From positions 18,727-82,726 of the forward strand of contig CAZPER010000002.1 in the NCBI GenBank assembly GCA_964585655.1: 64,000 nucleotides of DNA, in the 5' to 3' direction. The DNA comes from an uncultured Gemmatimonadaceae bacterium (GTDB taxonomy: Bacteria; Gemmatimonadota; Gemmatimonadetes; Gemmatimonadales; GWC2-71-9). Numbering within the stretch: position 1 is the first letter of the stretch; each line of letters opens with the position of its first letter. The position numbers were made by a program, and so were the translations under genes. The notes below the pieces were generated by a model. It searched no databases. It had not been told where the DNA came from and was given only the letters and a program-made list of their open reading frames with translations. Shown piece after piece: positions 15,610 to 56,660 of this stretch.

Positions 15610-15720
15610 TCCCGGCGCCCCAGGTCCGAAGGGCGCTGGCGCGCGAACCGCGTCAGGACCTCGCCGGTAGCAGCGCTAAGCGATGTCCAGTGTCGCTTCG
15701 GGGTGCCTGGGGCACTTCCT
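15610..15720 (+). ncRNA. ffs: signal recognition particle RNA (small/4.5S type)
   Basis: Long imperfect hairpin closed by GCCCCAGG (15617-15624) and CCTGGGGC (15706-15713). The apical region GUCAGGACC-UCGCC-GGUAGCAGCGCUAAGCGAUG parallels E. coli domain IV GUCAGGUCC-GGAA-GGAAGCAGCCAAGGCAGAUG. It lies next to dnaX, as in many bacteria. Ends are approximate. Confidence 0.6.
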
Positions 15721-36547: not shown

Positions 36548-36597
36548 GGCGGGAAATATATCCCGGCGCGTGACCGGGGAATTGTCCGGGGGCCGGA

Positions 36598-41071: not shown

Positions 41072-41206
41072 GGCTGTCCCTGCTGCGGAGACGAGAGTGT
41101 GTAACGGATCCGTTGTTATCTGATCACGACGGAGTAGATCGGGGGAGTCAAAAGTAGAAACGCGGGGCGGGAACGACAATACGCACGGAACCGACGCAAT
41201 CACGCG

Positions 41207-41294: not shown

Positions 41295-41804
41295 TCACTT
41301 GACAACCAGCGGAAAGGTCCCTGCCCGGTGCCGCTCCGCCTGCCCCACGTAATGCCGCCAGGTCTGCTCGATCCGTTCCGCCAGCCGCGCGTCCACCTGG
41401 CGCACCACCCGCCCCGGCATCCCCATCACCAGCGATCCCGGCGGCACCCGCATCCCCTCCGGCACCAGCGCCCCGGCGGCGATCAGGCTCCCCGCCCCGA
41501 TCTCCGATCCATTGAGCAGAATGCTCCCCATGCCGATCAGGCAGTCGTCCCCGACAGTACAGCCGTGGAGGATCACCCGGTGCCCCACCCCGACCCGCGA
41601 CCCGATCGTGCAGGGCACCCCCTCATCGACGTGGACGATGGTCCCGTCCTGGAGGTTGGTCTGGGCCCCGATCGTGATCGGCGCCATGTCGCCCCGGAGC
41701 ACCGCGCCATACCAGACGCTGGACTGCTCGGCGAGCGTCACGTCCCCCATCACCGCCGCGGTGGGCGCGATGAAGGCGGTGGGATGAATCCGCGGCTGGG
41801 TCAC
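41295..41804 (-). CDS. gamma-carbonic anhydrase family / hexapeptide-repeat protein (YrdA/PaaY-like)
   Basis: Left-handed beta-helix repeats, IGxxxNLQDGTIVH pattern. GTG start overlapping the kinase stop (GTGA). Confidence 0.85.
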   Translation of the reverse strand: MTQPRIHPTAFIAPTAAVMGDVTLAEQSSVWYGAVLRGDMAPITIGAQTNLQDGTIVHVDEGVPCTIGSRVGVGHRVILHGCTVGDDCLIGMGSILLNGSEIGAGSLIAAGALVPEGMRVPPGSLVMGMPGRVVRQVDARLAERIEQTWRHYVGQAERHRAGTFPLVVK

Positions 41805-43828
41805 GGAGTGTCGGGCTGGAAGGGGGCTTGGGTCCAGCCGTCCACCGGCTGGCCCTCCCGCATGGCGGGGGTCCAGGACATGCCCTGGGCATAGCTCTCG
41901 ACCGCGCGGGTGAAGGCGGGGTCGTTGGAGGCCTGCCGGGTCCGGAGCGCGAGGGTCTTCCCCTGGCGCGACACTTTCACGATGAGAACGACAGGGGTTG
42001 GGTGGGTGCGGCCGCCGTTGGGAATCGGGACCCGCATGGGGCTGAGCGGCTGCGGCGGCGTGTCGTAGCAGGCCCGGCCGAACTTGTTGGCCGCCGCCGG
42101 ATTGTCGCAGTCAAGGCGGGCCAGCGCCCGCCGCCGGAGTTCGGCGGCCGAGCCGGGCGGTGGCGCCGGCGAGTTGGTGGCACTCAGGTTGGGGGAGAAT
42201 TGCACCGTGCGGCCTCCCTCGATCCGGACGCTGTCGATGTACAGCGCATAGCCGGGAGCGGAGATGCCGACTTCGTGCCAGCCGGACGGGAGCGAGATGC
42301 CGCCGCTCCCCTGCGTGACCAGCCGGGAGTCAATGAAGAGATTGGTGCCGGCGGGCAGTGAAGAAAACAGGAGCACTCCGCTGTCCACCACAGCAGGCTC
42401 CGGCAGGACGGCGCTCGCCGGGGGTGCCGCCGGCCGGCTGGCGGGAGTCTCGGGCGCCGACGCGGCGCCCTGCCCGTCCAGCCCCGCGCCGGGAAGCAGC
42501 GCATCTTCGTCGAAGAGCGAATCCCCGGCCTGCAGCGTGTCCGGCGCAACCGCCCCGGGGATGCTGTCCCGCCGCACCGGTCCGCCCAGCACACCGGCCC
42601 TATAGAGGTAGAGCCCGCCCAGCGCGAAGCCCAGCACGGCCAGCAGGACGAACAGCCACGGCACCCAGCCCGACTTGGGCGGCTCCTGCACCACCACCGA
42701 CCGGCGCATGACCGGCCGCCGCGCCTCCCCCGGCATCATGACCGACTCCGAGGCCCTTCTCGGTGAAAGCGCCGGGTTGGAGCCCGACTGCGAGATCGGA
42801 GACAGCGGGACCGAGGCGGCGGGGAGCGGGGTGGTGGACGGGGGGGAGAGGATGGCCTGGGCGGTGGAGATCCGCCGCGCCGCCACCGATTCCCGCGGCT
42901 GGCCCTCCAGCGCCTTGAGCAGCGCCTCCGCGTCCTGGAACCGGTCGAACGGGTCCTTGGCGATCAGCCGCTTGATGATCTCGAAGACCCGGCGCTCGTC
43001 CACGGTGTCGAGCAGCGGCACCGGGATCGGCTCCATGATGTGCTTGTATCCGATGGCGAAGCTGTCCTCGCCATCGTACGGGACCTCTCCCACCAGGGCC
43101 TGGTAGGCCAGGATGCCGAGGCTGTAGAGGTCGCTCCGGCCATCGATGCTCTGGGCCCGCGCCTGCTCCGGGCTCATGTAGTGCGGGGTGCCGATGGACA
43201 TGCCGGTGCCCGTCAGCTTCGAGCCGGTGCCCGCCTTGGCGATGCCGAAGTCCGTCACCACGCACTGCCCGAACTCGTCGAACATGATGTTGTCGGGCTT
43301 GATGTCCCGATGGACGATTCCCCGCTTGTGCGCGTACCCCAGGGCCCCGCCCACGTCGGTGAGCAGCTTCCGGATCTCCGCCGGCGTGAGCCTCTTCCGC
43401 TCGGCCATCACCCGCGACAGCGAGCCGCCGCGCAGGAACTTCATCACGAAGTGAATGACGCGCCCGGTCTTCCCCACGCGATAGATGGGGATGATGTTCG
43501 GGTGTTCGAGCTGGGCGGAGGTGCGGGCTTCCCGGGTGAAGCGCTCGACGAATTCGGCGTCGAAGGCGAGCGAGAAGGGGAGGACCTTGATGGCGACTTC
43601 GCGCTCGAGGTGCTTGTCCATCGCGCGATACACGATGGCCATGCCGCCGCGGCCGAGCTCCTCGAGCAGCTCGTACTCGTCGGACAGCGCCTCGCGAACG
43701 ATGTCGAGTTCGGTGACGTCCCCCGTGGCGATCGCCTGCACCGGCGTCGTCACCCGGAGATCCAGGCCGCAGGTCGGGCAGAATTGCGTGGCAGGCTGAA
43801 CTTCCGCGCCGCACCGTGAGCAGAACAT
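41801..43828 (-). CDS. Ser/Thr protein kinase with N-terminal zinc ribbon, TM helix, PEGA-like and TonB-C-like periplasmic domains
   Basis: MFCSRCG...CPTCG; HRDIKPDNIMF, DFGIAK, GTPHYMSPEQ; TM WVPWLFVLLAVLGFALGGLYLY. C-terminal region ...VVLIVKVSRQGKTLALRTRQAS...AVESYAQGMSWTPAMREGQPV. Confidence 0.85.
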   Translation of the reverse strand: MFCSRCGAEVQPATQFCPTCGLDLRVTTPVQAIATGDVTELDIVREALSDEYELLEELGRGGMAIVYRAMDKHLEREVAIKVLPFSLAFDAEFVERFTREARTSAQLEHPNIIPIYRVGKTGRVIHFVMKFLRGGSLSRVMAERKRLTPAEIRKLLTDVGGALGYAHKRGIVHRDIKPDNIMFDEFGQCVVTDFGIAKAGTGSKLTGTGMSIGTPHYMSPEQARAQSIDGRSDLYSLGILAYQALVGEVPYDGEDSFAIGYKHIMEPIPVPLLDTVDERRVFEIIKRLIAKDPFDRFQDAEALLKALEGQPRESVAARRISTAQAILSPPSTTPLPAASVPLSPISQSGSNPALSPRRASESVMMPGEARRPVMRRSVVVQEPPKSGWVPWLFVLLAVLGFALGGLYLYRAGVLGGPVRRDSIPGAVAPDTLQAGDSLFDEDALLPGAGLDGQGAASAPETPASRPAAPPASAVLPEPAVVDSGVLLFSSLPAGTNLFIDSRLVTQGSGGISLPSGWHEVGISAPGYALYIDSVRIEGGRTVQFSPNLSATNSPAPPPGSAAELRRRALARLDCDNPAAANKFGRACYDTPPQPLSPMRVPIPNGGRTHPTPVVLIVKVSRQGKTLALRTRQASNDPAFTRAVESYAQGMSWTPAMREGQPVDGWTQAPFQPDTP

Positions 43829-43882: not shown

Positions 43883-46156
43883 TTAGGGTCTGACTTCGAA
43901 GCCCGCGCGGCTGCGGCGGACCGCGCCCGTCGCGTCCTTGACCGCGACCTCAAGATCGTACTTGCCGGGGGACAGCCGTTCCAGCGACACGCTGCGCTGC
44001 AGCTGGGTGCGGGGCCCCTGGGACTGGTCCTCGAAGGTGAGCCGGATGGCCGGCTTCCGGGAGCCGAAGATGCCCAGGAAGCCCCCGCCTCCCTGCCGGG
44101 TGATGAAGACCTCGGTCGTGAAGGGCGCCCCTTCCGACAGGCCATACACCTCGTAGTAGAGCTCCAGCGGGGCCGCCTTGCGGTAGCGCCGCAGCGGGTT
44201 GAACCAGACGGTATCGCGGGCGGTGGGCCGCCACTGCAGGTTTGCCTCCCGGGTCCCCACCACCAGCCCGCTCAGCTCGAAGTGATTGCCGGAGAAATCG
44301 CCGGCGGTGATCGTGTCGCTCGCGAGGATCACCCCGTTGTCGTCGCCCTGCTCCACCGCCAGCCGGTAGGTGAGCAGGCCGGGGATGACCGGGACCCGGA
44401 TCTGCCCCACGAGATGCTCCCGCTCCGGCACCGGCTCCCGGGCGATGAAGAGCCGCGTGGTGTCCATCGTCGCGACCGGCCGCCCGGTACGGTCCACCAC
44501 GCTCAGCCGCACCCGCACCGGATAGAGGTGTCCCCGGTCGGACGGCACCTCGCGCAGCGCGGAGCCGGGAATCGCGTAGGAGAGATGCAGCAGGCCTCCC
44601 GCGGTATCGCGGCCCGCCACCACGACATCGGTGGACAGCCGGAGGCGGCTGCCATAGCGCAGCTCGTAGGTGTCGGTGAGGGTGCCCCGCTCGATGCTCC
44701 GGCGTCCCAGCATCCGCTCCTCGGTGAGGTACTGCTGGGAGCCGGCGGTGCCCGTCTGCATCAGGCGGCTGTAGATCGGCGAGAGGCGTTCGCGGGTGGA
44801 CAGCAGGTCGCTCACGCGGCCGGTGGTGACGTTGTCCCGGTCCCCGCGCAGTGCCAGGGCGTTGCTGAAGCCCAGGACGTCGAAGACGCTCTCCACCAGC
44901 TTGTAGTCCTGCACGTCCTCGCGGGCCACGAAATGAAAGACCAGGTTGCCGTCGGCCCGCTCGTACATCCACGATTCATTGAACTGGATTCCGGGCGCGT
45001 TGTAGGTGGCGCGCTCGGCCGGTTCCCCGTGGCGGATGTACACGACGCCACGGTCATCGTAGTCGCGGCTCCCGCTGCGGAACCGCTCCACGATATCGTA
45101 GTGCCGGTTGGGGGAGACCAGCTGGAAGTTGCGCCGGGCGTAGAACACCCGTCGGTAATGTTCCCGCAGCCGCTCGCCGTCCCGCAGCAGGGAGGCCCGG
45201 TCCCGCTGGCCCCAGAAGCGGCGCAGAAAGGAGACCCGGCGGTCCCCGGCGTTGGCGTCGAACTCCGCGAGAGCGCTGTCATTGGCCACCAGGGCCAGGT
45301 CCGCGCGATAGGCGGCGACCGTCTCGCCGTCGTCGATCCGGGCCCCTTCGTAGTAGGAGCGCTGCCCCGCGAGGCTGCCGGCGAGGAGTTCGGTACGCGC
45401 CAGCTCCAGCAGGCCCAGCCCCTGCGCCCCGCCCCCCGTGAGGTAGGAACGGAACGCCACGAGCGCCGAATCGATGTCCCCCACTTCCCGTTCCAGCCGG
45501 CCGCGGTACAGCAGCACGTCGGGGTTGGCGGCGGCGCTGGTGGCGGCGGCCTGGCGCAGCGCCTCGCGGGCCAGGGCGGTCTTCACGTTGATGCGCTGGC
45601 GGAGCGCGGTGGAGGCGAGCTCCACCAGGCCACGGACGAACGACGGGTCGGTCTGGACCGAGCGGGCGTATGCGTTCGCGGCGCGGGAGAGGTGATCCTT
45701 GCCGAACATTGCCTGCAGCCCCTGGACGATCGCGATCTCGGAATCGCCGACCCGGTCTTCCGCCGTCCCGAGGCCGTACCAGGCCCAGGGCCAGGTCGGC
45801 TCGATCTCGGTGGCCCACTGGAACTCGCCCGCCGCATCATCGAAGCGGCTCCGGCTCCCCTGCTCTCCCAGGCGCATCGCCACAAAGCCGAGCTTGAGGT
45901 GGCGCATGGCATTGTTGCGATCCGCGCGCGCCTCCCCGATCAGCCGCTGCTCCAGCACCAGCAGCGAAGCGCTGTCGGGAATGGTCGCGATCGAGTCACG
46001 GAATCGCTCGATGAAGGCCCGGTCGTCGGGGGACTGGGCGGCGAGGGAGGTGGCGGCAAGCAGCGGCACCAGCAGCATCCGCCAGCGCCGGACGGCGCGC
46101 GGGAGGCGCGGCTCGCAGGGGCGAGTTCCCAGCCTGGCGACTCGGCTACTCGGCAT
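43883..46156 (-). CDS. large secreted protein, GWxTD-domain-like with TPR-like N-terminal region
   Basis: ORF trimmed to MPSSRVARL (or the ATG at 46078). Signal peptide LLVPLLAATSLAAQ; FLRRFWGQRD and YDDRGVVYIRHGEP resemble the GWxTD signature in degenerate form. Confidence 0.5.
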   Translation of the reverse strand: MPSSRVARLGTRPCEPRLPRAVRRWRMLLVPLLAATSLAAQSPDDRAFIERFRDSIATIPDSASLLVLEQRLIGEARADRNNAMRHLKLGFVAMRLGEQGSRSRFDDAAGEFQWATEIEPTWPWAWYGLGTAEDRVGDSEIAIVQGLQAMFGKDHLSRAANAYARSVQTDPSFVRGLVELASTALRQRINVKTALAREALRQAAATSAAANPDVLLYRGRLEREVGDIDSALVAFRSYLTGGGAQGLGLLELARTELLAGSLAGQRSYYEGARIDDGETVAAYRADLALVANDSALAEFDANAGDRRVSFLRRFWGQRDRASLLRDGERLREHYRRVFYARRNFQLVSPNRHYDIVERFRSGSRDYDDRGVVYIRHGEPAERATYNAPGIQFNESWMYERADGNLVFHFVAREDVQDYKLVESVFDVLGFSNALALRGDRDNVTTGRVSDLLSTRERLSPIYSRLMQTGTAGSQQYLTEERMLGRRSIERGTLTDTYELRYGSRLRLSTDVVVAGRDTAGGLLHLSYAIPGSALREVPSDRGHLYPVRVRLSVVDRTGRPVATMDTTRLFIAREPVPEREHLVGQIRVPVIPGLLTYRLAVEQGDDNGVILASDTITAGDFSGNHFELSGLVVGTREANLQWRPTARDTVWFNPLRRYRKAAPLELYYEVYGLSEGAPFTTEVFITRQGGGGFLGIFGSRKPAIRLTFEDQSQGPRTQLQRSVSLERLSPGKYDLEVAVKDATGAVRRSRAGFEVRP

Positions 46157-46206: not shown

Positions 46207-48105
46207 CTAGGGGACGTCGCTCCCCTGACCTTCCGCCACACGTTTCAGAAACGTCACCAGCCCGTCCCGCACCGCGAGCGCATAGGCCAGCTGCCCCGCC
46301 GGCTGCCGGAGTGCGGCCTCCTGGTCCGGCAGCATCATGAAGAACCCCTCGCACAGCACGGCTGGCATCCAGGTAGGGCGGACCAGCGCCAGGTCGCCGC
46401 GCGCGGCTCCGAGGTCCCGCAGCCCGAGGCGCCGAACCAGTGCGGCCTGGATGTCCTGGGCCAGCGGCAGGCTCCGGGGGTGATAATAGAAGACACTCGA
46501 GCCGTTGTTGGTGAACGGGTTCACGCCATCCGGCAGCGCGTTGTTGTGAATCGATACCAGCAACTCGGCACCGAGCGAGTCCGCGAACCGGGTCCGGGCA
46601 TTGAGGTCCAGGCTTTCGGTGCCCCGCCGGGTCAGGATCGGCTGCGCGCCGGCGGCCTCCAGCAGCCGAACCAGCTCCAGGGACACGGCGAGGTTGGCGT
46701 CGGCCTCCTTGAGCCCGGTGGGACCGGTCGCGCCCAGCGGCGGGTGGCCCGGGTCCACCACGATTCTCCGGCCCCGAAGGGGCGCCGCGCCATCCACCAC
46801 CGGCGGCCGGCGCACTTCCAGCAGCAGGTCGTTCCCGCTCCAGCGAGTCCGATAACCCCACACCGGACCCGCGACATCCAGGGTGATGGTGACCTCGTCG
46901 CTCGCCGCCTGCAGCCAGCGGATCTGCCGCAGGTAGGGATCGTTGGCGCCGTACCGGATCCAGTTGATGTCGCCCACGGTGTTGTAGAGCCGCAGCGTGA
47001 GCCCGCCCTTCGCTTCCTCAACCCGGAACGGTATCCGCGCCGTGAGCGGCACCCGGACCACGACCCGGTCGGTGGCCGGAGTGGCGGTAAGGGAGAGCAC
47101 GGTGGCGCGGAGCGCGGGGCTCCCGGCGGGCAGCGGCACCAGATCCGCCGCCGGCACCCAGGCCTCCTGCTGGCGGGAGAGCCGGATGCGCGCGTCGTCT
47201 CCCAGCCGACCCGTGAGCTGGGCGCGGGTACCGGTCGGGAAGAACCAGTGGTAGGTCGCGCCGGGGCGCGCCCGTCCCACCGTCAGGCTGTCGGTGGTGC
47301 CGCTGCCCGCCGAATCGTCGTTCAGTTCGACCATCACCGGGAGGGTATCAAGCAGGGTGACCTCAAGCGGCCAGCGCAGCCGGACGGTATCGGCGCCACG
47401 GATCGCTTCGATGACAGCGCCCGTGGAGTCCCCCGGAAGGGCCTGGCCGCGGATGGCGCCAACGTAGCGTTCCGCACGCTGTGGCGCGAGGAGGTTTGCG
47501 GTGTCCCGGTCAAAGGCCCGGATCCCCCACGCAACCTCCCCGGGCCCCCGTTCGGCGGCGAGCGGGACCACGGCGCCACCGGGGAGCAGCAGGCGGACCT
47601 CGGCACCCTCGACGGCGCGGAGACTGACGGGGAGGTACTCGTCCCGGGGCCACCAGACCCGGCCCCCCGGACTGAGGCTGAGACTATCCACCCAGACCGG
47701 CGCGGCCGGGGGGCGGAAGCGGGGGACGGTCCGGAGGGAATACTGGTATCGCAGGGTGTCGGCGCCGGCGGTGGCCACCAGGGCGAAAGCCGGCGCGGAA
47801 TCCGGGGGGAGCGGCACCCAGGCCAGCCAGGCGCCATTGGGCCAGACCTTCACCGCCGCGTCATTGATGGTGAGCAGGGCCCGGCCGGTGCCGACGGTTC
47901 CGAACAGGAAGGTCGAGTCCCGGGCGTCCACGACGTCCCGGGGCCCGGGATAGACCACCCGGATCTCGAGCGGGCCATCCACCGTGGGAACCGGCGGGAG
48001 TCGGGAACCGTCTGGCGGGAGGGGACCGGGGGCGGATCCCGGCCGGGCGCAGCCAGCCAGGAGGAGGAGCGCCAGGGCGAGACCGCCGCGCACCGCAAGG
48101 GGCAT
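46207..48105 (-). CDS. N-acetylmuramoyl-L-alanine amidase (Amidase_3/AmiC-type) lipoprotein with long N-terminal domain
   Basis: ORF trimmed to MPLAVRGGLALALLLLAGC (lipobox). C-terminal VVDPGHPPLGATG...SIHNNA...EGFFM amidase_3 motifs. Confidence 0.8.
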   Translation of the reverse strand: MPLAVRGGLALALLLLAGCARPGSAPGPLPPDGSRLPPVPTVDGPLEIRVVYPGPRDVVDARDSTFLFGTVGTGRALLTINDAAVKVWPNGAWLAWVPLPPDSAPAFALVATAGADTLRYQYSLRTVPRFRPPAAPVWVDSLSLSPGGRVWWPRDEYLPVSLRAVEGAEVRLLLPGGAVVPLAAERGPGEVAWGIRAFDRDTANLLAPQRAERYVGAIRGQALPGDSTGAVIEAIRGADTVRLRWPLEVTLLDTLPVMVELNDDSAGSGTTDSLTVGRARPGATYHWFFPTGTRAQLTGRLGDDARIRLSRQQEAWVPAADLVPLPAGSPALRATVLSLTATPATDRVVVRVPLTARIPFRVEEAKGGLTLRLYNTVGDINWIRYGANDPYLRQIRWLQAASDEVTITLDVAGPVWGYRTRWSGNDLLLEVRRPPVVDGAAPLRGRRIVVDPGHPPLGATGPTGLKEADANLAVSLELVRLLEAAGAQPILTRRGTESLDLNARTRFADSLGAELLVSIHNNALPDGVNPFTNNGSSVFYYHPRSLPLAQDIQAALVRRLGLRDLGAARGDLALVRPTWMPAVLCEGFFMMLPDQEAALRQPAGQLAYALAVRDGLVTFLKRVAEGQGSDVP

Positions 48106-48150
48106 GGGCTGCAAGGTACACGGCCACCGCGACTTACGGCAGATCATCCG

Positions 48151-48179
48151 TTGACGCTCCACGCGCGCAATCCTAGATT
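48151..48179 (+). promoter_or_regulatory. candidate sigma70-type promoter for the FHA-kinase-phosphatase operon
   Basis: TTGACG (48151-56), 17-nt spacer, TAGATT (48174-79), ~115 nt upstream of the FHA gene ATG. Confidence 0.4.
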
Positions 48180-48292
48180 GCTGGGATAGCCCTTCCGTAC
48201 ATCGTCCCGAGATCCGAGGATCGCCCCATCAACATGCACCCGGCGTGCGTCGGTTGGCTGGTCAGCTTCGCCGCCTTCGAGGTGAGGGGCTG

Positions 48293-49210
48293 ATGTCACC
48301 ACCGGCGCCGGAGGTCTCGCGCGGCCCGGCGGGTGCGGGCGCCAGCGTGAAGTGTCCGAGCTGCAACGCCGGCGTCGCCGCCGACCTGCCCTTCTGCGGC
48401 CAGTGCGGCACCCGGCTGACCCAGGCGCGGGCGGCGCACGCCTGTACACGGTGCGGCCGGCTGAACGAACAGGGCTCCAAGTTCTGCCCAGCCTGCGGGG
48501 CCGCCTTCGGCAACACCGGGCCGCAGCCCCAGGTCCCCGCCGCCCCGCCCAAGAGCGGCGGGCCCGTCACGGCGCACCTTGCCCTGCTGGACCGGGGCGG
48601 CCAGGTGGCGCAGCGTTTCCCGTTGCTCAATGCCGTGACGACGCTGGGCCGCCAGGGGGCCGACGTCAATTTCCCCGATGATGATTATCTCTCGCCGCTG
48701 CACGCCCAGTTCCTCCTGATCGACGGCATCCTGACCCTCCGGGACCTCGGCAGCAAGAACGGCACCTGGCTCTACCTCGATGAACCCCACAAACTCACCG
48801 ACGGAGATCTCATCCTCCTCGGCAGCCAGATCCTCCGCTACCGCCGGCTCGGCTATCCCGGGCCCCGTCCCCCGGAGCAGGACCAGACCCGGCGGCTCGG
48901 GAGCCTGACGCCGGCGGCGGATATCGCCAACCTGGCCCAGGTCCGGGGCGACGGCAGCGCCCGGGATATCCTGACCCTTTCCCCGGGTCGGTCGGTGCGG
49001 GTGGGCCGGGAGCAGGGTGACTGGCAGTTTCCCTACGACTCCTCGATGAGCGCCCTGCACGCCCTCATCCGGAGCGAGGACGCCGACTTCGTCCTGGTGG
49101 ACGCCGGGAGCCGGAACGGCGTGGCCGTCGCGGTGAAGGGGGAGCGGCGGGTGCCGCCCGGTGCGCGGCTCCTCGCCGGCGACCAGATGCTCCGCGCGGA
49201 GATCGGATGA
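48293..49210 (+). CDS. zinc-ribbon plus double FHA-domain protein
   Basis: ATG at 48293. CPSC...CGQCG and CTRCG...CPACG ribbons. Two FHA cores (TLGRQGADV...SPLHAQ...LRDLGSKNGT and RVGREQ...SALHA...VDAGSRNG). Confidence 0.8.
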   Translation: MSPPAPEVSRGPAGAGASVKCPSCNAGVAADLPFCGQCGTRLTQARAAHACTRCGRLNEQGSKFCPACGAAFGNTGPQPQVPAAPPKSGGPVTAHLALLDRGGQVAQRFPLLNAVTTLGRQGADVNFPDDDYLSPLHAQFLLIDGILTLRDLGSKNGTWLYLDEPHKLTDGDLILLGSQILRYRRLGYPGPRPPEQDQTRRLGSLTPAADIANLAQVRGDGSARDILTLSPGRSVRVGREQGDWQFPYDSSMSALHALIRSEDADFVLVDAGSRNGVAVAVKGERRVPPGARLLAGDQMLRAEIG

Positions 49211-50949
49211 AGGTCTGCACCACCTGCGGCGCCGAGTACGGCGACGAGAAGCTGTTCTGCGAACGGGATGGCACCTCGCTCCGGAAGTCGGGAGGGGCGG
49301 GCGATCTCGTGGGCCAGGTGATTGCCGAGCGGTACCACATCACGAAGAAGCTGGGCGAGGGCGGGATGGGCCAGGTCTACCTGGCCGAGCATGTGAAGAT
49401 GGGCCGCCGCTGCGCCATCAAGATCATGACCCCGGGGACGATGAGCGACCCGGACGCGATCAGCCGCTTCAACCGCGAAGCCGCCAACGCCAGCCGCATC
49501 AGCCACCCCAATGTCTGCGCCATCTACGATTTCGGGGAGACGCCCGACGGGCTGATCTACCTCGCGATGGAGTACATCGAGGGGAAGAGCCTGAGCGGGC
49601 TGATGGAGGAGGCGGGGACGCTGCCGCTGGCGCGCGCCGCGCTGATCGTCACCCAGACCGCCGAGGCGCTCCAGGTCGCCCACGACCTCGGCATCGTCCA
49701 CCGGGACCTCAAGCCCGACAACATCATGGTCATCACCGCCCGCGGGAAGGACACCGTAAAGGTGGTGGACTTCGGCATCGCGAAGGCGATCGGCGGGGAC
49801 GACGGCAGCGCCCAGAAGGTCACCAAGACCGGTTTCGTGGTGGGGACGCCGGAGTACATGAGTCCGGAGCAGCTCTCCGGCGACCCGGTGGACGGCCGCA
49901 GCGACAACTATTCCCTGGGCCTGGTCTTCTACAAGATGCTGACGGGGGCGAGTCCCTTCCCCGCCGACAGCCAGCAGGAGACGATGATCAAGCGGCTGAC
50001 GGACGATCCGCTGCCGCTGGCGGCGGCCCGGCCCGACGTCCGCTTCCCGCCCGAGCTGCAACGGGTCATGGACCGGGCCCTGGCGCGGAGCCCGGCGGAG
50101 CGCTATCGCACCGCGGGCGACTTCGCGCGAGAAGTGAAGGGCCTCTCCAGCGTCCTGACGGGACAGGTGGATGCCGAGGCCGGCACCCAGGTGGTGCGGC
50201 CGGAGGACCTCAAGGCGGCGGTGCCGGCCACCCGGGTGGACCCCGCGGCGGGCCGGGCGGTCAAGCCGGCGCCCAAGACCCAGCCGGCGTCAGCGGCCCC
50301 GGGCAGCGCTCCCGCCGGTTCGCGCCTGCCGGTGGTGCCCATCGCGATCGCCGTAGCGGTGCTGGCCGTGGGCGGTGGGGGCTACGCGTTCAAGGACGCC
50401 ATCTTTGGTGCGGCGCCCGCGGACTCCGGCGCGGTGCAGGATACCAGCCGGCTGGCGGGTGGGACCCCGATCGTCCCGGAAACCACCGCGGTCGATCCCG
50501 GCACCACACCGGGGCCCGTGACGCCGCTGAGCGGGCGGGACACCGCCACCAAGCCGCCGCAGCAGGGCGGCGGCCGACCGACGGGGGGGCAGACCAACCC
50601 CGGTGGCACGCCGACGAATCCGGGCGGCACCCCGACGAACCCGGGCGGCACCAGCACCAATCCTCCGGTGACGCCGGACAATGGGGCGCTGGAGCGCCAG
50701 GTCCTGGCGTACTATGACGACCTCGGATTCGAGGACGATCCCAGCAAGCGCCTGGAGGCGCGGCGGCTGGGCCAGCAGGTGTTCACCATCACCGCGATGC
50801 CCCGCCCGGTCCGGGCCAAGGCGGCGTGGCTGGTCATGCAGGGGTATCTCAAAGAGGGCAACGCCGACAAGGCACGGGAGTGGCTCGATCACGCGATCGA
50901 ACTCGACCCGTCTCAACAGTCCTGGAAGACCGTCCGGGCGCAGATGTGA
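49207..50949 (+). CDS. Ser/Thr protein kinase with N-terminal zinc ribbon, TM helix and extracytoplasmic Pro/Thr-rich plus helical-repeat domain
   Basis: CTTCG...FCERDG; HRDLKPDNIM, DFGIAK, GTPEYMSPEQ; TM VVPIAIAVAVLAVGGGGY. ATGA overlap with the FHA gene. Confidence 0.85.
   Translation: MKVCTTCGAEYGDEKLFCERDGTSLRKSGGAGDLVGQVIAERYHITKKLGEGGMGQVYLAEHVKMGRRCAIKIMTPGTMSDPDAISRFNREAANASRISHPNVCAIYDFGETPDGLIYLAMEYIEGKSLSGLMEEAGTLPLARAALIVTQTAEALQVAHDLGIVHRDLKPDNIMVITARGKDTVKVVDFGIAKAIGGDDGSAQKVTKTGFVVGTPEYMSPEQLSGDPVDGRSDNYSLGLVFYKMLTGASPFPADSQQETMIKRLTDDPLPLAAARPDVRFPPELQRVMDRALARSPAERYRTAGDFAREVKGLSSVLTGQVDAEAGTQVVRPEDLKAAVPATRVDPAAGRAVKPAPKTQPASAAPGSAPAGSRLPVVPIAIAVAVLAVGGGGYAFKDAIFGAAPADSGAVQDTSRLAGGTPIVPETTAVDPGTTPGPVTPLSGRDTATKPPQQGGGRPTGGQTNPGGTPTNPGGTPTNPGGTSTNPPVTPDNGALERQVLAYYDDLGFEDDPSKRLEARRLGQQVFTITAMPRPVRAKAAWLVMQGYLKEGNADKAREWLDHAIELDPSQQSWKTVRAQM
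50596..50658 (+). repeat. 3 x 21-nt in-frame tandem repeat (NPGGTPT) inside the kinase gene
   Basis: aaccccggtggcacgccgacg / aatccgggcggcaccccgacg / aacccgggcggcaccagcacc. Confidence 0.8.
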
Positions 50950-50955
50950 GGCAAC

Positions 50956-51978
50956 TTGGCTAACGTGCACATCTCCGTCTTCGGCAAGACCGACGTGGGC
51001 AAGACCCGCGATCACAACGAGGACACCTTCCTCGTCGCGGACCTGACCCGGAAGGCCGCGAGCCTGCAACCCGACGTGCGCGAGCACGATGTCGGACCGC
51101 GCGGCACCCTCTTCATGGTCGCGGACGGCATGGGCGGGGCGGCCGCCGGCGAGGTCGCCAGCCGCATGGCCGCCGACCTGGTCTTCAGCCACATGTCGAC
51201 CGTCTGGACCGAGGACAGCGACGTCAGCGCCCAGCGCTTTGCCTACCGGATGAAGGAGGCGGTGGAACTGGCCAACAACCGGATCCACCTCCACGCCAAG
51301 GACCACCCCGAAGTCCGGGGCATGGGCACGACCGCCACGGTGGCCGGCGTCTTCGGGAGCGATCTGTACCTGGCTCAGGTCGGTGACAGCCGGGCCTACC
51401 TGATCCGGAAGGGCGCCATCACCCAGATCACCAAGGACCAGTCGCTCATGCAGCGGCTGGTGGAGGCCGGGGAGATCACCGAGGAGGAGGCCGAGCAGAG
51501 CGAGCGGCGCAACATCATCCTCCAGGCCCTCGGCCCCGACCCCCGGGTCAAGGTGGACCTCACCTACCAGCCCCTCCGCCGAGGCGACCTGCTGCTGCTG
51601 TGCTCCGATGGACTGTCGGGACAGGTCAAGAAGGAAGAGATGGCCCAGCTGGTCGCCGAAGGGGGCGAACTGGTGGACATCTGCTCGCGGCTCATCACCC
51701 TGGCCAACGAGCGGGGGGGCCCCGACAACATCACGGCGATCGCCGCTCGCTTCGGCGGCGACGGCCTGCCCGAACCGGACGGCAGCGCCGAGGTGGGCCA
51801 CCAGGTCTATCCGCTCACCGAGGCGGAGGCTACCACCGAGCCGGTCCCCGTGTACACCGGAAGCCCCGCGCCCGTGCCCATCAGCGAGCAGCCGGCCCAG
51901 CCCCGGCGCACGGTGCTCGGGCTGCTCGCGCTGCTCGCGCTGGCCGCCGCGCTCTACCTCGCGTTCGGTGGCCGGTGA
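50956..51978 (+). CDS. PP2C-family Ser/Thr phosphatase with C-terminal TM anchor
   Basis: GKTDVGKTRDHNED, MVADGMGG, DNITAI. TTG start at 50956 (GTG alternative at 50965). Confidence 0.85.
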   Translation: MANVHISVFGKTDVGKTRDHNEDTFLVADLTRKAASLQPDVREHDVGPRGTLFMVADGMGGAAAGEVASRMAADLVFSHMSTVWTEDSDVSAQRFAYRMKEAVELANNRIHLHAKDHPEVRGMGTTATVAGVFGSDLYLAQVGDSRAYLIRKGAITQITKDQSLMQRLVEAGEITEEEAEQSERRNIILQALGPDPRVKVDLTYQPLRRGDLLLLCSDGLSGQVKKEEMAQLVAEGGELVDICSRLITLANERGGPDNITAIAARFGGDGLPEPDGSAEVGHQVYPLTEAEATTEPVPVYTGSPAPVPISEQPAQPRRTVLGLLALLALAAALYLAFGGR

Positions 51979-51991
51979 CGGGCCGCCGCCC

Positions 51992-53446
51992 ATGAAAGCC
52001 CAGTTCACGTTCATCTCCGGCGCCCGCGCGGGCCAGACCGACGTCTTCAGCCAGGCCCACATCAGCATCGGCCGGCACCCCCAATCCGAACTCCGCTTCG
52101 ACGCCGACCAGGACCTGGACGTCTCCAGCCGCCATGCATCCGTCACGCTGGTGGGGGAGTTCTACGTCCTCCGGGACCTGGGCAGCACCAACGGCACCTT
52201 CGTCAATGGGAAGAAGCTCACGGGTGACCATATGCTGGCCACCCGCGACATGATCCGCTTCGGGCCCAGCGGCCCGCAGGTGGAATTCACCGCGATCGGG
52301 GCTCCGGGGCCCGGCGCCGGCAGCTCGACGCCGGCCGCGAAACCCGAAGGCACCGTGGTGTTCGGTCAGCAGCCCCCCGCCCCGCCACCGCCTCCACCAC
52401 CGCAGCTCTCCCCGGAGCAGATGCGGAGCCCGCGGCGCACCCCCGGGCCCGGCACCCAGACCAAGGTCCGGATGGAAGTCCGGCGCCAGACCAAGGGGCT
52501 CCGGACCACCACCATCGGGCTCTTCGGCCTGCTGGTCGTGCTCGCCGGCGCCTACCTCTGGCAGGTCCGGGCCGCCGACCAGGCGCTGGCCGACCAGCGG
52601 CGGGCGCTGCTCGGCCAGGTGGACAGCCTGATGCAGGAGATCGGCGCCATCGTCCAGGGCAACGAGGGGCTCAGGGCGGCGCTCGACTCCTCCCAGGCCG
52701 AAGCGGAGCGGCTGCGCCAGATGCTGGCCAATGCCCCGGACCAGGACCGGATGGCGGAGCTGCGCACCCGGCTGGAGCAGGCGCTCCGGCAGCAGCGTTC
52801 GCTGGCCGGCGCGGCCTCCGTGGATGCCCGCGGGATCGCCGCGGCCAATCGTGACGCCATCGCCCTGGTGTTCGTGGAATTCCCCGATGGTCGGGTCATC
52901 ACCGGCACCGCGTTCGCGGTCCGCTCCGACCCGAACGGCGGGCTGCTGATCACCAACAAGCATGTGGTGGTGGACTCCAACGGCACCGTCGCCAGCCGGC
53001 TCGGGGTGGTGTTCGAGGGCTCCCGGCAGAACTTCCGCGCCGACCTGGTGCGGGTGTCACCGGACGCGGACGTGGCGCTGATCCGTGCCTCAGTGCATCG
53101 TGGCTTCCCGGTGGTGAAGTCCCTGGCGGACAGCGGACGCGTGGTGGAAGTGGGGGAGGCGAGCGCGGTGCTCGGCTTCCCGCTGGGGCTCGACCTCGCG
53201 GGCGGGCGGGATTGGAGCCAGATCGGGGTGGCGAGCACGCTCACGCTTGGCACCGTGTCCCGGATCCTCCCCGACCTGGTGCAACTCGACAGCTATGGCG
53301 CCCAGGGTTCGAGCGGCAGCCCCATCTTCGACCGCAACGGCAGCGTCATCGCCGTGCTTTACGGCGGCCAGCCCGGCAGTAATGGCCGCATCCTCTACGG
53401 TGTACCGATTCGCTTCGCCCACCGGCTCCTTTCCGATAGTGAATAA
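51992..53446 (+). CDS. FHA domain - TM - coiled coil - trypsin-like (S1) serine protease fusion protein
   Basis: ORF 51608..53446 trimmed to MKAQFTFISG. FHA core SIGRHP...SSRHA...LRDLGSTNGTFVNG; TM IGLFGLLVVLAGAYLW. Catalytic triad contexts TNKHVV, DADVALI, GSSGSPIF. Confidence 0.75.
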   Translation: MKAQFTFISGARAGQTDVFSQAHISIGRHPQSELRFDADQDLDVSSRHASVTLVGEFYVLRDLGSTNGTFVNGKKLTGDHMLATRDMIRFGPSGPQVEFTAIGAPGPGAGSSTPAAKPEGTVVFGQQPPAPPPPPPPQLSPEQMRSPRRTPGPGTQTKVRMEVRRQTKGLRTTTIGLFGLLVVLAGAYLWQVRAADQALADQRRALLGQVDSLMQEIGAIVQGNEGLRAALDSSQAEAERLRQMLANAPDQDRMAELRTRLEQALRQQRSLAGAASVDARGIAAANRDAIALVFVEFPDGRVITGTAFAVRSDPNGGLLITNKHVVVDSNGTVASRLGVVFEGSRQNFRADLVRVSPDADVALIRASVHRGFPVVKSLADSGRVVEVGEASAVLGFPLGLDLAGGRDWSQIGVASTLTLGTVSRILPDLVQLDSYGAQGSSGSPIFDRNGSVIAVLYGGQPGSNGRILYGVPIRFAHRLLSDSE

Positions 53447-53492
53447 CGCTCCCGGGTGAGGGGGGTCACCGCCCGGAATTGCCCCACATCCC

Positions 53493-56400
53493 ATGATGGT
53501 GGGGATGCCCCCCCGTCCCATGGCTGTCCTGCGCGCGAAGATGGACCGCCTCCTGAGTCGCGCCGCGCTCGGGGGCGCGTTGCTGTTCGTGGTCGGGGTC
53601 GGCGCGGGCACCTGGTGGACCCTGGACCGGATTCACGAAGCGGTCCGCCAGTCGGTGCAGACCGGCCTCACCACCGTCCTGGCCAACGCCCGCGAGGCCA
53701 CCCACCACTGGGTCACCCGGCAGCAGGTGCTGGTGGCCGGGCTCGCTTCGGACCGTGGACTCAGCCGGGCGGTGGAGCGGCTGCAGGATCCTCGTGCCAC
53801 GCGCCGGGCGGAGGCGGAGGCGATCACCACGATTGGCGCGGCGCTGGAGCCCGCCGTCCGCGCCAGCACCCTGCAGGGCTTCTGGATCCTCTCCCCCGAA
53901 GGCCACCCGCTCTACCGCTGGCCCGACACCCTCCCGGCCGACCTCCCCGTGGCCATGCAGGAGCCGTTCGAGCGAGCCCTCGACGGCCTCCCCACCCTCA
54001 GCTCCTTCGCGACGGATACGGTTCGTCCCGGACCCGTCGCCGCGCTGGCGCCGATCCGGGACGCGCACGGTCTTCCGATCGCGGCGCTGGCACTGGCCCT
54101 CCCCGCCCGGACAGAACTGGAGCAGATCGCCGCCCAGAGCCATCACCGGGCGCTGGGGCAGGTCTATTTCTTCGACCGCACCGGGCGGATTCTCGGGACC
54201 AGCATGGCCCCGGAGCCCTGGGGGGACGACGCCCGCCTGGTGGACCCCGGAACCGGGCGGCTCACGCGGATGGCCCAGGCGGCGATCGCGGGGCGCACTG
54301 ATCTCGACCTCGACGGCTACACCGATCACCGCGGGGAGCGGGTGGTCGGAGCCTGGGAGTGGGACCCCGAGCTGGGCATCGGCATCGCGGTCGAGACCCG
54401 TGCCGCGGACGCCTACCACGTCGTCGAGACGGCCCGGAGTGCCCTGCTGGCGGCGCTGGCCATTACGTTGCTGCTCTTCCTCGCGGTGCTGGCCAGCGTC
54501 ACCCAGGCCCGGCGCCGGGCCCTGGCCCTCACGGCGCTCCAGCATCGCCTCGCCGCGGTGCTCGAGTCTACCACCGACCCGGTCTGCTTTGCCGATGAGC
54601 TCGGCGCGCCCATCTACCTCAACGAGGCCGGCCGGGCGCTCCTGGTGGGCCCCCACGGCTCGCCGGTCGCCGCGATCGCGGCGGCGCAGGTACTTCTGCG
54701 TCCGGAGGCGCGGGAGGCGGCGCAGTTGCATGGCACCTGGAGCGGAGAGAGCACCATGCTCACGGGCGACGGGCGGGAACTCACCCTGTCCCAGGTGCTG
54801 ATCTGCCACCGCACCGACGCCGGCGTGGTGGATTTCTACTCTACCCTAGCGCGAGACATCACAGACCGGAAGCGGCTCGAGCGGCGGCTGTCGGAGGAGA
54901 AGGAGCGGGCCGAGGTGACGCTCGGCTCGATCGGCGACGCGGTGATCCGGACCGATGCCGCGGGCCAGATCGAGTACCTGAATCCGGTGGCCGAGGAGCT
55001 GCTCGGCTGTCCCGCCTCAGAGCTGGCGGGCCGGGGGATCACGTCGGTCCTGACCCTCGCGCACGAGTCCACCCGGGAGCCGCTGGAGAATCCGGTGGAG
55101 ACGGCCATCCGCGAGCGACGGGTGGTGGGCCGGTCCAACTTCTCGCTCCTCATCCGTCCCGATGGCCGGGAGTTCGCGATCGACGAGAGCGCGGCCCCCA
55201 TCACCGGCGGCGACGGCGAGATCCTCGGCGCGGTGTTCATCTTCCACGACGTGAGCCGGGCCCGGAGCCTGGCGCGGCAGCTGGCGCATCAGGCCAGCCA
55301 CGACTTCCTCACCGGCCTGGTCAACCGGCACGAATTTGAGCGGCGGGTGGGCCGGGCCCTGACCCGGGCACAGCAGGAGTCGGTGACACACGCCCTCTGC
55401 TTCCTCGACCTGGACCAGTTCAAGGTGGTGAACGACACCTGCGGTCACGTCGCCGGGGACGAACTGCTGCGCCAGCTGGCGCAGGCGCTCACCAAGAAGG
55501 TGCGCCGGCGGGACACCCTGGCACGGCTGGGCGGCGACGAGTTCGGCGTGCTGCTCGAGCACTGCGCCCCCGGCCAGGCCAGCCGGGTCGCCCAGGAGCT
55601 GCTGGCCACGATCCAGGAGTTCCGGTTCTCGTGGGAGGGGAAGCCCTTTGCCCTGGGTGTGAGCATCGGCGTGGTGCCGATCACGGCGGAGAGCGAGAGC
55701 CTCGCGACCATTCTCCGCGACGCCGACGCCGCCTGCTACGCCGCCAAGGAGCGGGGCCGCAACCGGGTGCATATCTACGAGACCAACGACGTGGAGCTGG
55801 CGGTGCGCCAGGGCGAGATGCAGTGGGTCAGCCGGATCACCAGCGCGCTGGAAGAGCACCGCTTCCGGCTCTACGGCCAGCCGATCGTCCCCCTCGTCAC
55901 CCGGCCCGGCGAACCCCAGCGGGTGGAAGTGCTGCTGCGGATGGTGGATCACGACGGGACGCTGATCGCCCCGGGGGCCTTCATCCCGGCGGCGGAGCGC
56001 TACAACCTGATGGGGGCGGTGGATCGCTGGGTGGTGCGGGAGGTGACGGCGCTCTACGAACGGGCGGGGGCCCAGGGCACCGTGCCGATCGCCTCGATCA
56101 ATCTCTCCGGGGCCTCGCTCGGCGATCCGACGATGCTGACCTTCGTCCGGGAGCAGTTGGCGCGGCATGCCCTGAGCCCCGACACCCTCTGTTTCGAGAT
56201 CACCGAGACGGCCGCCATCGCCAACCTCGCCCTCGCGGCGCATTTCATTCGCGAGCTCAAGGCGATGGGGTGCTGGTTCGCCCTGGACGACTTCGGCAGC
56301 GGCATGTCGTCCTTCGCCTACCTGCAGAGCCTGCCGGTGGACGCGCTCAAGATCGCCGGGGCGTTCCTCCGCCACATTGAGACCGACCCGATCGAATACG

Positions 56401-56660
56401 CCATGGTGGAGGCGATCACCCGGGTGGGCCACGTGATGCGGCTCAAGGTGGTGGCGGAAGGGGTGGAGAACCTCAATACGCTGGACACCCTGCGGGCCAT
56501 CGGCGTGGACTACGCGCAGGGCTTCGCCATCGCGGAGCCGAGCCCGCTGGAGCCGCTGGTGCTCGGCCCCGGGCTCAAGGTGCTGGGCGGCGGAGCAGCA
56601 GGGCGCCGAGGGCCAGCATCACCCCCAGGATCCCCACGCTCCAGACCAGCCATCGCCTGA
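53493..56660 (+). CDS. membrane sensor diguanylate cyclase/phosphodiesterase (periplasmic sensor, PAS, GGDEF, EAL)
   Basis: Two TM helices flank a ~270-aa periplasmic domain. PAS-like regions, RLGGDEFGVLL (GGDEF), EITETAAI and LDDFGSGMSS (EAL). The last ~30 codons overlap the convergent SSF gene. Confidence 0.85.
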   Translation: MMVGMPPRPMAVLRAKMDRLLSRAALGGALLFVVGVGAGTWWTLDRIHEAVRQSVQTGLTTVLANAREATHHWVTRQQVLVAGLASDRGLSRAVERLQDPRATRRAEAEAITTIGAALEPAVRASTLQGFWILSPEGHPLYRWPDTLPADLPVAMQEPFERALDGLPTLSSFATDTVRPGPVAALAPIRDAHGLPIAALALALPARTELEQIAAQSHHRALGQVYFFDRTGRILGTSMAPEPWGDDARLVDPGTGRLTRMAQAAIAGRTDLDLDGYTDHRGERVVGAWEWDPELGIGIAVETRAADAYHVVETARSALLAALAITLLLFLAVLASVTQARRRALALTALQHRLAAVLESTTDPVCFADELGAPIYLNEAGRALLVGPHGSPVAAIAAAQVLLRPEAREAAQLHGTWSGESTMLTGDGRELTLSQVLICHRTDAGVVDFYSTLARDITDRKRLERRLSEEKERAEVTLGSIGDAVIRTDAAGQIEYLNPVAEELLGCPASELAGRGITSVLTLAHESTREPLENPVETAIRERRVVGRSNFSLLIRPDGREFAIDESAAPITGGDGEILGAVFIFHDVSRARSLARQLAHQASHDFLTGLVNRHEFERRVGRALTRAQQESVTHALCFLDLDQFKVVNDTCGHVAGDELLRQLAQALTKKVRRRDTLARLGGDEFGVLLEHCAPGQASRVAQELLATIQEFRFSWEGKPFALGVSIGVVPITAESESLATILRDADAACYAAKERGRNRVHIYETNDVELAVRQGEMQWVSRITSALEEHRFRLYGQPIVPLVTRPGEPQRVEVLLRMVDHDGTLIAPGAFIPAAERYNLMGAVDRWVVREVTALYERAGAQGTVPIASINLSGASLGDPTMLTFVREQLARHALSPDTLCFEITETAAIANLALAAHFIRELKAMGCWFALDDFGSGMSSFAYLQSLPVDALKIAGAFLRHIETDPIEYAMVEAITRVGHVMRLKVVAEGVENLNTLDTLRAIGVDYAQGFAIAEPSPLEPLVLGPGLKVLGGGAAGRRGPASPPGSPRSRPAIA

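Follow-up and report, generated by a model that had tools for sequence, protein, structure and literature searches.

We have found, within a 64,000-nucleotide (nt) stretch of contig CAZPER010000002.1 from an uncultured Gemmatimonadaceae bacterium (the whole of which is called the window here), four consecutive genes, g1 to g4, which encode a double-FHA adaptor, a membrane Hanks-type Ser/Thr kinase, a membrane-anchored PP2C phosphatase and a protein, g4, in which an FHA domain is joined through one transmembrane (TM) segment to an HtrA-like S1 protease. We are highly confident of this four-gene anatomy and of its being a self-contained phosphothreonine (pThr) signalling module. Judging from sequence searches, the FHA-TM-protease fusion is not confined to this genome: it belongs to a large Gemmatimonadota family and has relatives in at least four other phyla. 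The reading that we favour overall, to which we give about an even chance, is that the pThr module steers periplasmic proteolysis tied to peptidoglycan turnover.

Anatomy of the four-gene cluster

The four genes lie in series on the plus strand at 48.1-53.4 kb. Open reading frame (ORF) coordinates and domain matches place them where a sequence-only reading of this DNA had put them, with the junctions that it had described: g1 and g2 overlap by 4 nt (ATGA), g2 and g3 are separated by 6 nt, and g3 and g4 by 13 nt. The features are as follows.

48151..48179, plus strand: sigma-70-like promoter candidate, TTGACG-17 nt-TAGATT, in the divergent intergenic region (pattern scan)
48293..49210, plus strand: g1, double zinc ribbon and two FHA domains, cytoplasmic, 305 residues (Pfam)
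49207..50949, plus strand: g2, membrane Hanks-type Ser/Thr kinase, 580 residues (Pfam Pkinase 1.3e-50)
50956..51978, plus strand: g3, PP2C phosphatase with C-terminal membrane anchor, 340 residues (Pfam PP2C_2/PP2C)
51992..53446, plus strand: g4, FHA domain, disordered Pro-rich linker, TM segment, helical stalk and HtrA-like S1 protease without PDZ domain, 484 residues

The promoter candidate named in the sequence-only reading was recovered at 48151-48179. It is the sole promoter-like match in 47800-57200 (9.4 kb), where shuffled sequences lead us to expect 0.2, and both hexamers are kept around a variable, diverged spacer in 31 of 44 orthologous intergenic regions, which is the pattern expected of a functional promoter. 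A scan of the same interval found no terminator-like site between one gene of the four and the next. A terminator-like match inside g2 (50386-50399; 5-bp stem, weak T tract) was discounted, as it lies in coding sequence and the number of matches is within shuffle expectation. The Rfam scan gave no leader RNA at the kinase locus. The G+C content is 66-75% throughout the window, the composition at the kinase cluster is uniform with its surroundings, and the closest relatives of the window's proteins are from Gemmatimonadota metagenome-assembled genomes (MAGs). Long antisense ORFs (for example 50290-52146, minus strand) have no family matches and are the usual by-product of high G+C.

The g1 start is an ATG behind the Shine-Dalgarno sequence GAGGTGAGG, with an alternative GTG at 48245. 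Pfam identifies FHA (1.9e-19, in two stretches), DZR (2e-08) and Zn_Ribbon_1 (1.6e-09) in the product, and a hydropathy scan found no hydrophobic segment in it; g1 is a soluble bivalent adaptor built of zinc ribbons and two FHA domains. The linker between these two domains, RRLGYPGPRPPEQDQT199RRLGS, is almost invariant across 52 sequences.

In g2, the kinase domain (residues 43-300) is followed by a TM segment at residues 374-392 located by hydropathy. The features by which a Hanks-type Ser/Thr kinase is recognised are all there, namely the Pkinase domain, the catalytic Lys (AIK, VAIK-like), HRD (HRDLKPDN) and DFG motifs and the activation-loop threonines T206 and T208, both 100% conserved; TPEYMSPE is also present. 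The N-terminus carries a conserved ribbon-like motif, Cx2C-x10-Cx2D. The periplasmic region is Pro/Thr/Gly-rich, of low complexity and poorly conserved, with a weak TPR-like end. Pfam found no PASTA repeats, and the PASTA-kinase model NF033483 (PknB/Stk1) scores 314.8 bits against a cut-off of 450, matching the kinase half only. The g3 gene starts at TTG 50956 or GTG 50965, and its product has a TM segment at residues 320-338, the metal-binding motifs NED, DGMGG, SDG and GPDN, and a score of 242.5 bits with the NCBIfam Stp1/IreP/PstP-type model NF033484 (Stp1_PP2C_phos), above the cut-off of 230. On these motifs g2 looks like an active membrane Hanks kinase and g3 is predicted to be a tail-anchored PP2C. 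The active-site and pThr-binding residues are intact, which bears out the earlier suggestion that a writer, an eraser and two readers of pThr are encoded together.

The FHA-protease g4

The domains of g4 were located by Pfam, which places FHA at residues 24-91 (4.1e-16) and Trypsin_2 at residues 305-455 (7.5e-19), by hydropathy, and in an AlphaFold monomer model built on 53 orthologues (mean predicted local distance difference test score, pLDDT, 81.6).

51992..52297, plus strand: FHA domain, residues 1-102 (AlphaFold pLDDT ~90 or more; pThr-binding R28, S45, H48 and N67)
52505..52561, plus strand: TM segment, residues 172-190, TTTIGLFGLLVVLAGAYLW (Kyte-Doolittle 19-residue mean 1.73)
52562..52858, plus strand: periplasmic helical stalk, residues 191-289 (AlphaFold monomer)
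52859..53434, plus strand: protease domain, residues 290-481 (confident AlphaFold fold, Pfam Trypsin_2)

The four residues characteristic of pThr-binding FHA domains (PF00498), R28, S45, H48 and N67, are invariant in the two sets of orthologues aligned (14 and 53 sequences), and the same R-S-H-N tetrad is kept in 252 of the 266 FHA domains scored across the g4 family. The linker at residues 104-156 is Pro-rich and disordered in the model. Helices follow at 156-221 (containing the TM segment), 225-246, 251-275 and 279-289. What had been read as a long coiled coil thus stands as a run of four helices at residues 156-289 of the AlphaFold monomer, a putative coiled coil only.

The catalytic residues of the protease domain are His324 (codon 52961-52963), Asp360 (53069-53071) and Ser441 (53312-53314). 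They align with the DegQ catalytic triad and are invariant in the 14 and 53 orthologues, and the triad is H-D-S in 252 of the 262 g4-family proteins scored. Proper alignment therefore confirms the intact His/Asp/Ser context proposed from the sequence and, with the domain matches and hydropathy, the arrangement of FHA domain, one TM helix and trypsin-like domain. The best Foldseek matches of g4 in the PDB are the protease domains of HtrA1, DegP, DegS and DegQ (target TM-score ~0.75), so that the chymotrypsin fold and triad of the HtrA proteins are both found. The PDZ domain of that family is not: Pfam gave no PDZ match in g4, the chain stops 3 residues past the protease domain, and the scores with TIGR02037 (42.3 bits against 416) and TIGR02038 (17.7 against 423) are far below the cut-offs. 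Three g4-family members have RDA or TDA in place of the triad (catalytic His to Arg or Thr, Ser to Ala); these are probably pseudoproteases, in a family whose conservation is otherwise strict.

The segment between FHA and S1 is the single hydrophobic segment of g4, and there is no N-terminal signal peptide. Since there is no signal peptide, and since phosphorylation depends on ATP, the FHA domain is expected to be cytoplasmic; with FHA inside and one TM segment, the protease would therefore be in the periplasm. A relative with the domains in the reverse order, described below, reaches the same topology and agrees with this assignment.

Conservation in Gemmatimonadota

Relatives of g4 were sought by scanning one genome per GTDB species, which gave 292 places, and the best 80 were taken for comparison of gene order. 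All of these best 80 are from Gemmatimonadota, and among them the order g1-g2-g3-g4 is kept down to 43% identity of the protease. The g1 and g2 genes overlap in all of the 55 pairs measured; the median gaps are 12 nt between g2 and g3 and -1 nt between g3 and g4. In 80 species the cluster keeps the same place between cell-wall genes, and it has diverged in step with its neighbours. We read it as a vertically inherited Gemmatimonadota operon.

An exhaustive search of a representative library returned 290 clusters (50% identity) at E<=1e-30, most of 430-500 residues and matched over their full length. All g4-family cluster representatives with a named organism come from Gemmatimonadota. The cluster look-ups found no Gemmatimonadota isolate with the family, only MAG or metagenome entries. 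The only names that public annotation gives the family are 'trypsin-like peptidase domain-containing protein' and 'S1-C subfamily serine protease'.

Related proteins in other phyla

Searching from divergent g4-family members found relatives in other phyla, and nine loci were inspected. The architecture is FHA-FHA-TM-S1 in Spirochaetia and in Bacteroidota, a Tannerella MAG among them; in metagenomic lineages it is FHA-FHA-FHA-TM-(stalk)-S1, and on a Myxococcota contig FHA-TM-S1. A MAG of the Blastocatellia (Acidobacteriota) encodes a protein, P0345 (L083 7001-8707), of reversed order, signal peptide-S1-TM-FHA; no kinase gene lies within 7 kb of it, and a SPOR/SpoIID gene is found 4 kb upstream. 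Of 171 proteins with both domains, 148 have a hydrophobic segment separating FHA from S1.

At seven of the nine loci outside the g4 family a Pkinase gene is adjacent or within the cluster; at five of these seven, PP2C and stand-alone FHA genes are found as well, the order varying from locus to locus. This survey of the architecture and of its linkage to Ser/Thr kinase and PP2C genes favours a real functional unit. At locus L089 (692-7296, in a complete 4.86-Mb genome) the genes encode FHA, FHA, PP2C-LysM, a kinase with SH3_3 and FHA-FHA-TM-S1; the kinase and protease genes overlap by 4 nt, and two components of the cluster carry cell-wall-binding domains. Neighbouring genes carry the Por_Secre_tail domains of type IX secretion, so L089 is probably from Bacteroidota. 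At a further Bacteroidota locus (L084) the exo-muramidase gene namZ is two genes away.

Triple-FHA variants (P0267 at L081 7001-8971, P0176 and P0282; 656-828 residues) have three N-terminal FHA domains before the TM segment and protease, and the P0267 gene is followed directly by a kinase gene. These variants look as if a g1-like double-FHA protein had been fused to a g4-like protein.

Genes on either side of the operon

The operon of the window lies between two sets of genes for peptidoglycan turnover, which supports and sharpens the earlier suggestion that the cell envelope is its target.

46207..48105, minus strand: divergent N-acetylmuramoyl-L-alanine amidase lipoprotein with C-terminal Amidase_3 domain (Pfam Amidase_3 3.3e-33)
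43883..46156, minus strand: GWxTD-domain protein, downstream of the amidase (TIGR04514 36 bits against a cut-off of 28; start ATG 46156 or 46078)
41801..43828, minus strand: second Hanks kinase, last gene of the minus-strand string (Pfam Pkinase 3.8e-49, Zn_Ribbon_1, PEGA, TonB_C)
53493..56660, plus strand: g5, dCache-PAS-GGDEF-EAL membrane protein (Pfam EAL 4.7e-61, GGDEF 7.9e-43)
56575..61680, minus strand: convergent peptidoglycan-recycling operon of four genes (Pfam, 4-nt overlaps)
60754-61680, minus strand: MurQ-like SIS protein (Pfam SIS domains)
59648-60757, minus strand: AnmK (Pfam AnmK 1.7e-96)
58218-59651, minus strand: GH3/NagZ-like protein (Pfam Glyco_hydro_3 7.6e-64)
56575-58290 at most, minus strand: sodium:solute symporter (Pfam SSF 5.1e-34)

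The signal peptide of the amidase bears the lipobox LLAGC. Solved structures of Amidase_3 can be aligned with the catalytic domain, in which the DPGH, E, SIHNN and CEG motifs are intact. The amidase gene is divergent from g1 and at most 900 nt away in 44 of 51 loci. Ahead of Amidase_3 are ~440 conserved residues without a Pfam match, a region that could be regulatory or protease-sensitive. The GWxTD gene adjoins the amidase gene in most of the closer loci. The second kinase bears an N-terminal zinc ribbon and g2 the ribbon-like motif described above; zinc-ribbon-capped kinases seem to be a habit of this lineage.

On the other side, the murQ-like, anmK, GH3 (nagZ-like) and symporter genes are, from their domain content and overlaps, predicted to form a translationally coupled pathway of anhydromuropeptide recycling. 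Of the 57 loci whose flank reached 4 kb or more, 33 have at least one recycling gene downstream of g4, and in relatives of 46-54% identity the recycling operon directly abuts g4. The link of the operon to the envelope is accordingly stronger than when first proposed, through the divergent amidase on one side and the recycling genes on the other.

Between g4 and the recycling operon of the window lies g5, which is present downstream of g4 in closer relatives only (24 of the 57 loci) and is a clade-specific insertion. The gap between g4 and g5 is 46 nt and has no terminator-like site; g5 is probably co-transcribed with g4, in a transcription unit that may run to 56660, and cyclic di-GMP turnover may thus be co-expressed with the pThr module in the window's clade.

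Further housekeeping genes near the locus encode a ribonucleotide reductase with a TSCPD domain (38537-41203, minus strand), GcpE/IspG (35312-37309, minus strand; a long N-terminal extension in the ORF) and a gamma-glutamyltranspeptidase (61734-63512, plus strand). The sole Rfam match in the window is a bacterial small signal recognition particle RNA at 15617-15716, plus strand (RF00169, 46 bits against a gathering score of 40).

Comparison with known systems

By analogy, the best model and closest mechanistic precedent for g4 would be PknF-Rv1747 of Mycobacterium tuberculosis, where a membrane transporter encoded beside its kinase is under the control of FHA domains and of threonines in the linker, phosphorylation acting positively (PMC3138270). 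As in Rv1747, the membrane effector of g4 is joined to a cytoplasmic FHA domain and to a disordered linker with threonines, and a Hanks kinase is encoded alongside. Rv1747 is an FHA-FHA-ABC transporter, the effector of which is an ABC exporter, whereas that of g4 is a protease across the membrane and its phospho-sites are candidates. Furthermore, the PknF-Rv1747 operon has neither a PP2C nor an adaptor FHA gene, and the g4 operon has both.

For the output of the protease on a cell-wall hydrolase, the closest precedent by analogy would be MarP-RipA. MarP (Rv3671c), an S1 protease anchored in the membrane and lacking PDZ, activates RipA, which is a peptidoglycan hydrolase (PMC6628586), and the MarP structures 3k6y and 3k6z are among the best PDB sequence matches of g4. 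Both are membrane-tethered, PDZ-less, HtrA-like periplasmic proteases. MarP, however, has a four-TM anchor, no FHA domain and no known phosphorylation link, whereas g4 has one TM segment after its FHA domain, and g4 scores 38.1 bits with the MarP model NF033740 against a cut-off of 250. With HtrA, DegP, DegQ and DegS (S1C), a family which is extracytoplasmic and controlled by oligomerisation, g4 has fold and triad in common, but it lacks PDZ and has an N-terminal FHA domain, a TM segment and a stalk.

The type VI secretion system PpkA-PppA-Fha1 is similar in that a kinase, a PP2C and an FHA reader form a post-translational switch of an envelope machine, and TssL-Fha of Agrobacterium is a related switch (PMC3953482). 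In g4, by contrast, the reader is fused to the effector itself. No type VI secretion genes were found in the Pfam-scanned neighbourhood of the kinase operon, and the TagH model TIGR03354 scores 37.9 bits against a cut-off of 120.25. A reading of the cluster as part of type III or type VI secretion was rejected, as the Yop-YscD_cpl and TagH matches reflect the FHA fold only, are below cut-offs and have no secretion genes nearby.

The same kind of fusion has been listed before. The FHA-FHA-Tryp protein NP_811686.1 of Bacteroides thetaiotaomicron is in a 2008 survey of prokaryotic serine proteases, as a catalogue entry without function, topology or gene context (PMC2605481). It has two FHA domains and a short linker, compared with one FHA domain and a long helical stalk in g4, and the Bacteroidota relatives described above, FHA-FHA-TM-S1, are found in clusters of Ser/Thr kinase, PP2C and FHA genes. 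Looser likenesses are found in proteins that differ from g4 and g1 in effectors and lineages. Sulfolobus ArnA and Anabaena FraH combine a zinc finger or ribbon with FHA; they share the layout of g1, which has two ribbons and two FHA domains, and the likeness is at the domain level. In Bdellovibrio DgcB (FHA-GGDEF), binding of phosphopeptide by the FHA domain directly activates the fused enzyme (PMC6733907).

The actinobacterial fhaA-fhaB-pstP-rodA-pbpA-pknA-pknB cluster likewise brings together FHA readers, a membrane PP2C and a membrane Hanks kinase with a tie to the cell wall. The sequence-only reading had called this likeness superficial, and rightly so: the FhaB and PknB-PASTA models fall short of their cut-offs here, rodA and pbpA are missing, the order is different and the output is a protease. 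On profile scores, the module lies outside the actinobacterial FhaA/FhaB/PknB, HtrA/DegP and MarP families.

Proposed mechanism and alternative readings

In the mechanism that we favour, kinase g2 would autophosphorylate its activation loop at T206/T208 and would then make pThr docking sites, the candidates being its own juxtamembrane T327, T199 of g1, T294 of the PP2C and T155/T167 of g4. The FHA domain of g4 would bind such a site, directly or bridged by bivalent g1, and this binding would recruit or cluster g4 in the membrane. HtrA-type proteases act as oligomers and their activity depends on oligomerisation, so clustering would switch on or localise periplasmic proteolysis; the PP2C would reset the system. 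The most obvious candidate substrates would be the amidase, encoded back to back with the operon, or its regulators. The candidate threonines lie outside folded domains, each with a hydrophobic residue at +3, and most are strongly conserved (kinase T327, in AGTQVV, 98%; PP2C T294, 97%; g4 T167, 99%; g4 T155, 87%). That phosphorylation controls the protease, in the inside-out direction, may be the case with a little less than an even chance on the sequence evidence; that peptidoglycan turnover is the process controlled is suggested by gene neighbourhood and should be regarded as unlikely rather than likely. We would extend the scheme only tentatively, and below even chance, to a widespread 'inside-out' class in which the cytoplasmic pThr state switches periplasmic proteolysis, here tuning peptidoglycan cleavage and recycling. 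Equally tentative is the membership of that class, which would take in Gemmatimonadota, Bacteroidota, Spirochaetia and, in reversed order, Acidobacteriota, with Hanks kinase, PP2C and adaptor FHA.

Several observations weigh against this mechanism. The g1 gene is absent from some lineages (L043, L048, L049), the amidase gene is not beside the operon in 7 of the 51 loci, and the recycling operon is absent downstream of g4 in the clade of 43-45% identity. Neither the Blastocatellia nor the Myxococcota locus has a kinase gene nearby. The candidate phospho-sites appear, from the alignments, to be conserved residues only. One of those considered, T121 of g4, is invariant in the 14 and 53 close orthologues and not in the wider family; it was rejected as an autoregulatory site because it is lost in a 77-sequence set reaching 43% identity, and T155/T167 are preferred, as candidates only. 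Since the g4 protease has no PDZ domain, the known routes of HtrA activation are not directly applicable to it. Finally, the positive-inside bias at the TM segment is weak (K+R 4.5 before and 3.6 after), too slight to serve as proof of topology, so the positive-inside rule was dropped and the topology of g4 rests on the logic given above together with the reversed-order relative.

The signal could also run from outside to inside, the protease being the input: the periplasmic HtrA-like domain would sense, for example, misfolded or cleaved envelope proteins and relay this through the TM segment to the FHA domain, which would then sequester or release the kinase, the PP2C or g1. Stress sensing is an established role in the HtrA family, for instance of DegS, which is among the fold matches of g4; the periplasmic region of the kinase, being poorly conserved and of low complexity, offers no obvious ligand sensor, and gene linkage is equally compatible with either direction. 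The PDZ domain that DegS uses for sensing is, however, absent from g4. Moreover, FHA domains are phosphorylation readers that are not known to transmit conformational change, and a flexible, disordered linker of 50 residues would be a poor conduit for a signal. We consider this direction improbable, both in outline and in its detail. A simpler possibility is that there is no gating, the FHA domain anchoring a constitutively active housekeeping protease, for example at the division or growth site, or g4 being merely one kinase substrate among many. FHA-mediated localisation is common, as with FhaA and FipA in mycobacteria, and conserved linkage needs no gating. A dedicated phosphatase and a second, bivalent reader are nevertheless kept in a translationally coupled operon across phyla, which argues for a reversible switch over a static tether, and we rate tethering, in either form, as distinctly improbable.

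The two remaining readings concern the identity of the cluster as a whole. It might be the Gemmatimonadota orthologue of the actinobacterial cluster, given the same types of part (FHA proteins, PP2C, membrane kinase) and the cell-wall context; FhaB/FipA is the best NCBIfam match of both FHA proteins and the PP2C passes the Stp1/IreP model. The FhaB model NF049868, however, gives 51.7 bits for g1 and 56 for g4 against a cut-off of 125, PknB_PASTA gives 314.8 against 450 with no PASTA repeats, and the N-terminal domain of FhaA was not found. The Pfam-scanned ORFs of 41.8-63.5 kb (kinase, GWxTD, amidase, operon, GGDEF-EAL, SSF, GH3, AnmK, SIS and gamma-glutamyltranspeptidase) include no rodA (SEDS) or pbpA (transpeptidase) gene, the genes stand in another order, and actinobacteria have no counterpart of the protease. 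Orthology is thus very improbable. An anti-phage or conflict system, with the kinase as sensor and the protease as effector, was also considered, since conflict systems do include trypsin-like effectors and FHA domains (PMC7159879), the kinase matches PD-T4-6 and mad6 of PADLOC and the protease domain weakly matches RT-Protease models. These PADLOC-DB matches reflect generic kinase-domain and S1 similarity, and g1 and g3 match nothing. The fixed position between housekeeping cell-wall genes in 80 species and the uniform composition speak against defence, and neither patchy distribution among close strains nor association with mobile elements was seen. With only generic matches in its favour, this reading is barely credible and was rejected.

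Significance

Some of what is described here has counterparts: FHA domains fused to effectors (ABC transporter, GGDEF) are already known, as are clusters of kinase, PP2C and FHA genes. What is distinctive is a pThr reader coupled across the membrane to a protease, in a conserved, multi-phylum and uncharacterised module. In the full-text papers searched we found no functional study of any FHA-protease, only the catalogue entry of 2008, and others may exist elsewhere.

Bacterial Hanks kinases steer cell-wall synthesis from the cytoplasmic side (PknB, StkP, PrkA, CwlM), and cell-wall hydrolases are under proteolytic control from the periplasmic side (MarP-RipA, Prc-NlpI). If the mechanism that we favour is correct, g4 would join the cytoplasmic kinase layer to the layer of periplasmic proteolysis. 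It would be a simple way for a decision taken in the cytoplasm to reach the other side of the membrane, with neither transport nor transcription, and would regulate extracytoplasmic proteolysis by a route other than those of DegS/RseP, Prc-NlpI and MarP. Should the protease be only tethered, or a housekeeping enzyme, the cluster would still be a well-defined and conserved one, annotated at present merely as a trypsin-like peptidase domain protein. Gemmatimonadota, in which the module is conserved, are abundant in soil and little studied, and the relatives in Bacteroidota mean that a genetically tractable host may exist. The presence of similar, unstudied gene sets in other phyla favours the view that proteolysis outside the cell is steered by phosphorylation inside it, to which we give a little less than an even chance.

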